Origin: Escherichia phage vB_VIPECOOM03
DNA length: 64,000 nucleotides
Sequence record: OQ721911
Direction: 5' to 3' (one strand)
Below the pieces are notes generated by a model, which saw only the letters and a list, made by a program, of their open reading frames with translations, had not been told where the DNA came from and ran no database searches. Below are positions 46,720 through 47,786 of the stretch, in pieces (positions within the stretch are counted from its first letter, which is position 1; the number at the start of each line of letters is the position of its first letter). Both the position numbers and the translations under genes were made by a program.

Positions 46720-47580
46720 TTACACCGCCATTTTTCCTTTCAAGACACCATGGGACTGATAATCTTTGAGAACGAAATCTCGCGCTGTCATATATTCAGT
46801 TAACCAATACATTTGAGTTTCAGTATCGCATTGACTGAATCCATTAGGCCAATTAATACTGAGTTTGCACAGGTCCATAGGGGTTCTATTTAATATCTCT
46901 TTGCATTGCTCAATATGGTTAGAATAAATGTGTGTATTGCCGCCCGAGAATATCAAATCGCCCGGAACTAGTTCACACATGTCAGCAACAATATGTAAGA
47001 GAGCAGCATAGCTCGCGATGTTAAATGGAAGACCGAGGAAAACATCTACCGAGCGTTGATACCATTGGAGGTCAAGGTATCCGTTACGAACATTAAACTG
47101 ATAGAACATGTGACAAGGTGGTAATGCCATTTGCTTAAGTTCAGCTGGATTCCACGCTGACACAATTTGACGCCTATCGTTTGGAAATGTTTTAATACGA
47201 TTAACAACTTCTACAATTTGGTCTACACCGCCAAAATCACGCCATTGTTTTCCGTAAATTGGACCAAGTTCACCACTATGATATCCTAAATCTTTTGCTT
47301 GATTTTCGTAATTTTCATCCCAAATCGTTTTTCCAGCAATTAAAGATCCATGAGTACGTTTACGTAGATCATTTACGTTAGTACTTCCTGACAGAAACCA
47401 TAGTAACTCAGAAATACATGCATTCCAAGCGAGCTTCTTAGTCGTTACTGCAGGAAAACCTTTAGTTAAATCCCAGCGTAATTTAGTACCGAACAAAGCA
47501 ATTGTTCCTGTGCCTGTTCGGTCATCGGTTTCGTAGCCATTTTCTAGAATATCTTTAATTAAAAATTGGTATTGTTGCAT
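46720..47580 (-). CDS. td: Thymidylate synthase (uninterrupted, no intron)
   Basis: ORF-track start at 47592 is a TTG; ATG at 47580 gives 286 aa (T4 TS length) with active-site PCH and conserved DLGP.YG.QWR; continuous, unlike intron-containing T4 td. Confidence 0.93.
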   Translation of the reverse strand: MQQYQFLIKDILENGYETDDRTGTGTIALFGTKLRWDLTKGFPAVTTKKLAWNACISELLWFLSGSTNVNDLRKRTHGSLIAGKTIWDENYENQAKDLGYHSGELGPIYGKQWRDFGGVDQIVEVVNRIKTFPNDRRQIVSAWNPAELKQMALPPCHMFYQFNVRNGYLDLQWYQRSVDVFLGLPFNIASYAALLHIVADMCELVPGDLIFSGGNTHIYSNHIEQCKEILNRTPMDLCKLSINWPNGFSQCDTETQMYWLTEYMTARDFVLKDYQSHGVLKGKMAV

Positions 47581-47786
47581 TAGTTCATCCAAGAATATGT
47601 AGAAGGATATTTGGCAAAGTTAGGCTTATATCCTAATTTAGTCATTTGTTTTGCTTTGCGAGTAAATCCTAAAGAACGCTCACCTTTAAGATATTGTTTT
47701 GGTGTCATAGGCCCTTGATGCATCTGCCGACAAATAAAAAGGGCCATAGCATTAGGAACATCCTTAACTTTTAATTTATTGCTCAT
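47580..47786 (-). CDS. Small basic hypothetical protein inserted between frd and td
   Basis: 68-aa ATG-initiated ORF; its ATG overlaps the frd stop (ATGA) and its stop overlaps the td ATG by 1 nt; Lys/Arg-rich. Confidence 0.55.

Follow-up and report, generated by a model that had tools for sequence, protein, structure and literature searches.

In phage T4 (NC_000866), the genes for dihydrofolate reductase (frd) and thymidylate synthase (td) abut with overlapping stop and start, as the original prediction for this locus had stated; the overlap is 4 nt. Escherichia phage vB_VIPECOOM03 (sequence record OQ721911, of which a stretch of 64,000 nucleotides, the window, was analysed here) instead carries a 68-codon, ATG-started open reading frame between frd and td, on the minus strand from 47786 to 47580, which we refer to as ORF68. 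This raises the question of whether ORF68 is a genuine gene, how it came to occupy the junction, and what its product might do for the phage.

Organization of the frd-td locus

The minus strand is the coding strand for every gene in the region from gene 32 to nrdA. Features of the locus, in the direction of reading, were as follows:

50987-50079, minus strand: gene 32, 302 aa
Between gene 32 and frd, minus strand: five small ORFs
47783..48364, minus strand: frd, dihydrofolate reductase, 193 aa; upstream gene of the operon
47783..47786, minus strand: ATGA overlap of the ORF68 ATG (47786-47784) with the frd TGA stop (47785-47783)
47580..47786, minus strand: ORF68 coding sequence, 68 codons plus TAA; member of phrog_9550, with a basic product of three predicted helices
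47786-47784, minus strand: ORF68 start codon ATG, read from the sequence
47582-47580, minus strand: ORF68 stop codon TAA, read from the sequence
47578..47582, minus strand: TAATG overlap of the ORF68 TAA with the td ATG (47580-47578), with one base in common (the last A)
46720..47580, minus strand: td, thymidylate synthase, 286 aa, continuous, without a group I intron; downstream gene
Between td and nrdA, minus strand: nrdA.2 and nrdA.1, two small ORFs
46167-43903, minus strand: nrdA, 754 aa

Pairwise alignment of the window with T4 placed a clean 204 bp insertion at the frd/td overlap. The T4 ATGA overlap was reportedly first described by Purohit and Mathews in 1984, and both its ATGA motif and its upstream sequence are common to the ORF68 junction. 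The ATG of this motif is the td start codon in T4; in the window it is the start codon of ORF68, and the td start lies 204 nt downstream in a second overlap. As the bases upstream of the ORF68 ATG closely match those before the td ATG in T4, ORF68 sits where translation of td is initiated in T4. The ATGA overlap at 47786-47783 had been recognized in the original prediction, as had an overlap between the ORF68 stop and the td start; the sequence of the latter had been given as TGATG, but it is TAATG, and the stop codon is TAA.

Similar arrangements were found in relatives. Overlaps in the JS98 group were equivalent to those of the window, and the junction of ORF68 stop and td start read TAATG(A) in JS98, Marfa and 4S, as in the window or equivalent to it. 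Phage 4S had ATGA at the ORF68 start and TAATGA at the td junction, CIP9 had ATGA and GTGA at the same places, and Marfa had a 4-nt spacer before ORF68 and TAATGA at its end. Overlap with both neighbours, the criterion used for a translationally coupled operon gene, was thus present at either end of ORF68 and supports the tight coupling that had been proposed, though the coupling itself is putative. We identified no promoter-like sites within or next to 47580-47810, the number of such sites in the region was not above chance, and there were no terminator-like hairpins in 46500-49500.

Elsewhere in the region, homologues of nrdA.1 and nrdA.2 were located at 46158-46484 and 46438-46701 of the window (both minus strand), overlapping each other by 47 nt, and nrdA.1 overlapped nrdA by 10 nt as it does in T4. 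The interval between frd.1 and frd is another variable slot of the same region: two ORFs at 48364-48621 (minus strand, 85 aa, phrog_3183) and 48606-48965 (minus strand, 119 aa, phrog_3566) separate the two genes in the window. Neither has a T4 counterpart, and in T4 frd.1 is followed directly by frd.

Distribution of junction states among relatives

We evaluated the frd-td junction in approximately 568 GenBank records that matched a 601-nt junction probe. An unrelated gene of 115-117 aa (phrog_1928; RB32ORF229c, RB3_232) was present at the junction in 363 records and ORF68 in approximately 135, and the two genes abutted as in T4 in approximately 70, the last count being an estimate from a 50-nt junction-probe listing and subtraction (BLAST joined half-matches). 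By these counts, the T4-type abutting arrangement is the rarest of the three common junction states, and ORF68 is 'extra' only relative to T4. The description of ORF68 as an extra, inserted gene therefore stands for the 204 bp comparison with T4, but not among relatives, most of which do not have the T4 state. In a wider sample of Straboviridae, the gap between frd and td was 0 bp, approximately 206 bp (ORF68 only), approximately 306-416 bp (one phrog_1928 gene) or 650-890 bp (one or two phrog_1928 paralogues, with or without ORF68). The genus Dhakavirus was itself polymorphic: JS98, JS10, IME281 and IME341 carried ORF68, whereas QL01 and IME08 did not.

The phrog_1928 gene resembles ORF68 in lying at the same junction, in being co-directional with its neighbours and in being polymorphic among Tequatrovirus, and it occurs alongside ORF68 in Marfa, CIP9 and 4S. 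It differs in its unrelated sequence, its greater length, a spacer of approximately 40 nt after it (and hence no overlap with td), frequent tandem duplication and higher frequency. Within Tequatrovirus it was the commonest occupant of the slot, and tandem paralogues were found in T4-like phages of Klebsiella, Enterobacter and Serratia; the loci concerned were L012 (3610-3963), L091 (RB3; 1211-1558) and L016-L045.

Evidence for a protein-coding gene under selection

A short frame with no known domain, unannotated in at least one relative (JS10), could in principle be a chance frame in a non-coding spacer, or a leader (upstream ORF) encoding an irrelevant peptide. An open frame this long would be expected by chance at a rate of approximately 0.5-0.8% (p ~0.008 from the base composition of the window; 0.5% of 100,000 shuffles of ORF68's own bases kept an open frame), and the other five frames of the interval contained 2-10 stops each. 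A tblastn search with the ORF68 protein matched 237 phage records, 235 of which covered at least 80% of it with the frame kept. Amino acid identity to the window protein was >90% in approximately 134 Tequatrovirus and Dhakavirus records, approximately 78-81% in Klebsiella T4-like phages, 68% in Enterobacter phage CIP9 and 60% in Serratia phage 4S, and fell to 40-43% in approximately 70 records of Phapecoctavirus (Stephanstirmvirinae), unrelated myoviruses of approximately 150 kb. Homologues in unrelated phage families shared 50-53% nucleotide identity. Against Marfa, CIP9 and 4S, dN/dS of ORF68 was 0.08-0.28 at dS of 0.9-3.7 (Nei-Gojobori), and differences in length between homologues were in-frame insertions confined to one loop. 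No Rfam family matched the interval, and its RNA fold z-score of 0.21 gave no RNA structure signal.

Selection well below neutrality, indels that kept the frame, protein-level homologues across families, the low chance expectation and the lack of an RNA structure signal in the interval all argue against a non-coding spacer, a reading that these comparative data effectively refute and to which we give almost no weight. The original prediction that ORF68 is a real gene was borne out: its frame was conserved across the junctions of related T4-like genomes, the comparison that had been proposed for checking it. ORF68 is very probably a real protein-coding gene under purifying selection and, given the exchange described below, an accessory gene that is passed laterally between phages. 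It is also about as constrained as thymidylate synthase; identity between the Marfa and window proteins was 81% for ORF68, 73% for td and 48% for frd.

Family membership and annotation

The locus is not new to sequence databases. Phage vB_VIPECOOM01 (Tequatrovirus vipecoom) was 100% identical to the window over the 601-nt junction probe, and its copy of ORF68 is annotated as hypothetical protein VIPECOOM01_00239 (WFG77854.1) of phrog_9550; the existence of ORF68 was therefore already on record. The window protein matched the phrog_9550 HMM with an E value of 5.2e-45, residues 1-68 aligning to profile positions 1-68 of 68, and distant family members (P0043-P0048) matched it too. Other members include Marfa gp177 (YP_009850431.1), CIP9 gp059, Serratia 4S MYO4S_00122 and phAPEC8_0028 (AFU62604.1). 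ORF68 is thus an already catalogued hypothetical gene, common among T4 relatives. Neither phrog_9550 nor a frd-td junction gene appeared in any paper in our literature search, where the phrase 'frd and td' was drowned by papers on Friedreich ataxia, and annotation and literature together yielded no assigned function, fold or experimental study for any phrog_9550 member.

Annotation of the family is uneven. In JS10 (NC_012741; extracted locus L089, 1501-1704) ORF68 is intact and 97% identical, yet unannotated, leaving an apparent intergenic gap of 202 bp. The records of PYPS2T and vB_EcoM_P8 give it the name 'flagellar biosynthesis protein', which looks spurious and automatic. The annotated product is only 42 aa in IME339 and Klebsiella phage EI, among others, and that of IME339 corresponds to the window protein from internal Met27 onwards. 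In IMGVR_UViG_2938479101_000007 (locus L010, 863-1097), a frameshift at an A-run around codons 29-31 splits ORF68 into two frames, representing either a pseudogene or a sequencing error.

An exhaustive HMMER profile search of 1.84 billion representative proteins recovered 14 clusters, whose proteins were all free-standing and 42-96 aa long. Few further members came from two word-indexed profile searches; all were of at most 108 aa bar one frameshifted product of 125 aa, and none had a Pfam domain. As far as these searches reach, the family is small, phage-restricted and free-standing. As originally predicted, no recognizable domain was found: Pfam gave no match for the window protein or 27 family members, and NCBIfam, PADLOC and PDB sequence-profile searches returned nothing beyond the family itself. 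PADLOC, which covers defence systems and not counter-defence proteins, had no match among four family members.

Recent exchange between genera

Comparison with Dhakavirus indicated how ORF68 may have reached its present distribution. ORF68 of the window was 96.1-97.5% identical at the nucleotide level to that of four Dhakavirus genomes, whereas identity was 69-76% in the 300 nt upstream and 78-81% in the 300 nt downstream, a pattern from which we deduce a recent exchange between Tequatrovirus and Dhakavirus. Between the two genera, dS was 0.05 for ORF68, 1.14 for frd and saturated for td. Such conservation might have pointed to a hidden RNA element or promoter, a possibility that was rejected given the Rfam and z-score results above and the lack of any excess of promoters or terminators; since divergent homologues show normal synonymous divergence, the 96-98% identity instead reflects recent transfer. 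The boundaries of the exchanged unit could be seen within Dhakavirus, where the junction reads ...CAGTATACAAATGAAACAATACC... in QL01 and IME08 and ...CAGTATACAAATGAGCAAT...GAACTAATGAAACAATATC... in JS98. The two junctions differ by exactly 204 bp, bounded by (A)ATGA and with immediate flanks that stay genus-specific, and a JS98-type phage minus the 204-bp unit would have exactly the junction of T4, QL01 or IME08. Taken together, these alignments show a recent lateral exchange of essentially ORF68 alone.

A second patch of elevated identity between the two genera was observed within frd: at nucleotides 101-150, locus L013 and the window were 94-98% identical, with flanks of 50-82%. This suggests that mosaic micro-exchange may be general in the region.

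Mobile small genes are known from T4-type phages. In PeSL cassettes, an early promoter and a stem-loop supply homology for recombination (Arbiol et al. 2010, PMC2839356; PMC4122927). Like ORF68, a PeSL-ORFan cassette involves a single small ORF gained, lost and exchanged among T4-type genomes at a fixed, 'acceptable' site. ORF68, by comparison, has no early sigma-70 promoter and no stem-loop, and is embedded in its operon by start and stop overlaps. Homology is on offer only in the (A)ATGA repeat of 4-5 nt and where frd and td are conserved at their ends. Nor does ORF68 resemble a moron, which carries its own promoter and terminator and often lies in the opposite orientation to its neighbours (Hendrix et al. 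2000, summarised in PMC2839356); it is co-directional, overlaps both neighbours and lacks promoter and terminator. We propose that ORF68 would be gained through recombination in the short conserved flanks at the frd 3' and td 5' ends, and that it could be lost by slippage between ATGA repeats, restoring the exact T4-type junction.

The patchy distribution, recent cross-genus transfer and exact boundaries, in a T4 neighbourhood rich in homing endonucleases (I-TevI, MobE, SegG), would also suit a selfish element or its relic, be it the remnant of a homing endonuclease or other mobile element, as the original prediction had allowed, or a cassette propagating itself with no gain for the phage. We consider this very unlikely. 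ORF68 does not look like a homing endonuclease (GIY-YIG, HNH, Seg or Mob) or a fragment of one, as no larger protein contains its sequence, all 14 clusters being of 42-96 aa, and no nuclease, NUMOD or HTH match was found in Pfam even at E values up to 10. Strong purifying selection over saturated synonymous divergence and the absence of linkage to I-TevI further argue against a relic, and the suggestion of a mobile-element remnant is rejected, given that the family consists solely of free-standing proteins.

Genomic context and association with td

In T4, td is split by a 1-kb group I intron with I-TevI, whereas td of the window is intronless. We considered whether homing of I-TevI, by co-converting the junction, might erase ORF68 and make it mutually exclusive with the td intron. 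This was rejected, as a chimeric ORF68 and I-TevI probe identified 58 records with both; I-TevI occurred in approximately 43% of ORF68-bearing records and approximately 30% of the rest (proportions estimated from evenly spaced rows).

All Straboviridae loci examined, which span at least five lineages, had ORF68 immediately 5' of td (the window, four Dhakavirus, Marfa and a relative, CIP9 and a relative, 4S, and one IMG/VR contig), and approximately 135 further GenBank records aligned in one piece across the ORF68-td junction. Among 80 diverse td loci sampled from IMG/VR, the family was present in eight and adjoined td in each. In Marfa, CIP9 and 4S, ORF68 ends at the td start codon, whereas one or two other genes separate it from frd. 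Distant members occurred in a different setting: in phAPEC8 and six metagenomic contigs they belonged to long runs of small ORFs that share one direction and lack Pfam matches, and neither td nor frd was nearby. A conserved partner gene was also sought and rejected, there being no neighbour common to the distant loci.

The place of ORF68 5' of td is more constant than free shuffling of an accessory gene would lead one to expect, which keeps a role linked to td in play. The main rival to the explanation that we prefer is that ORF68 is tied to Td: its product might serve Td, or the T4-type dNTP-synthesising complex, as a small subunit, a chaperone or a modulator, or might autoregulate td translation. 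A function of this kind would explain the constant coupling of ORF68 to td, at whose start it ends in all Straboviridae loci examined whatever lies upstream, and would fit a level of conservation comparable with that of td. Yet homologues in Phapecoctavirus and five other uncultured-phage contexts are not near td, and no family member was present within 4 kb of td in phage contigs of approximately 145-152 kb. Furthermore, approximately three-quarters of Tequatrovirus records, T4 included, lack ORF68 and have a near-identical td, and the presence of ORF68 is independent of the td intron, as the 58 records with both attest. ORF68 was absent from T4 and approximately 430 relatives, and would therefore not be needed for dTMP synthesis. 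We thus regard a Td-linked function as improbable. The regulator of thymidylate metabolism suggested in the original prediction found no positive support either, with homologues far from td and a T4 that makes dTMP without ORF68.

Predicted product and possible role

The ORF68 protein is 7.9 kDa, with a pI of 10.3 and a net charge of approximately +10.6; its 10 Lys and 3 Arg, set against 1 Asp and 1 Glu, agree with the Lys/Arg-rich product described originally. AlphaFold2 predicts a basic three-helix bundle. The window protein, modelled from a 27-sequence alignment, had a pLDDT of 82 with helices at residues 13-24, 29-39 and 43-50, and an independent run on a Phapecoctavirus-type homologue gave the same three helices (pLDDT 86, pTM 0.68). 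Models within the family superposed moderately (TM 0.56 to the BFVD model of a Klebsiella homologue), and Foldseek against PDB and BFVD returned no fold match outside the family. Near-invariant stretches were an N-terminal segment, M-S-N-K-L-K-V-x-x-V-P, and an aromatic C-terminal segment, Y-x-S-x-Y-S-W-M, which a one-residue β-bridge joins in the Phapecoctavirus-type model. The most conserved positions included the non-helical termini (N3, K4, K6, V7, V10, P11; Y60, S62, W66) and an LGYxP motif after helix 3. Charge and predicted helical fold are compatible with putative nucleic-acid binding, one of the functions raised in the original prediction; no Pfam or NCBIfam model for an HTH or other DNA-binding domain matched, and there was no fold match to a solved HTH protein.

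Our overall explanation, a genuine accessory gene that encodes a binding effector, blends a very probable first part with a less certain second, and as a blend comes out slightly more likely than not. Our best guess for the effector, offered tentatively and with somewhat less than even confidence, is an early-expressed protein unrelated to dTMP synthesis. ORF68 would be part of the prereplicative frd-td-nrdA message, with its translation coupled to that of frd and in turn passing ribosomes to td. A binding, non-enzymatic role is proposed because of the small size, basic charge and helical fold of the product and its conserved flexible ends, and we infer it from charge, size and genomic behaviour. 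Early in infection, the product may bind nucleic acid, or else an acidic partner from host or phage, acting as a dispensable, niche-dependent host-takeover or counter-defence factor and not as part of dTMP synthesis.

A bolder and rather doubtful reading is that ORF68 founds a family of small basic effectors with an orphan fold, perhaps a nucleic-acid-binding protein for counter-defence or host takeover. In this reading it would move across phage genera and families as a 204-bp 'plug-in' without a promoter, enter at ATGA start/stop junctions and rely on the translation signals already present in its host operon. In a weaker variant, ORF68 may modulate Td. Were the plug-in reading true, genes would be shuffled here in another way than by PeSL cassettes and morons.

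Implications for T4-like phages

The T4 reference is unrepresentative at the frd-td junction, and 'extra relative to T4' is therefore a weak criterion of novelty. Of what the original prediction proposed as a whole, part is supported. The practical gain is modest, and experiments might be worthwhile only for the precise promoter-less exchange and the orphan fold. For functional work ORF68 is nevertheless a clean candidate, being a single 204-bp gene with td-like conservation present in approximately one-quarter of sequenced relatives; as it is absent from isogenic-like neighbours, natural gain/loss pairs and simple transplantation into T4 are available. If a counter-defence or host-modulating role is established for ORF68, it would represent a new small-protein family without a known fold, and would also illustrate the exchange of operon-embedded cassettes between phage genera.
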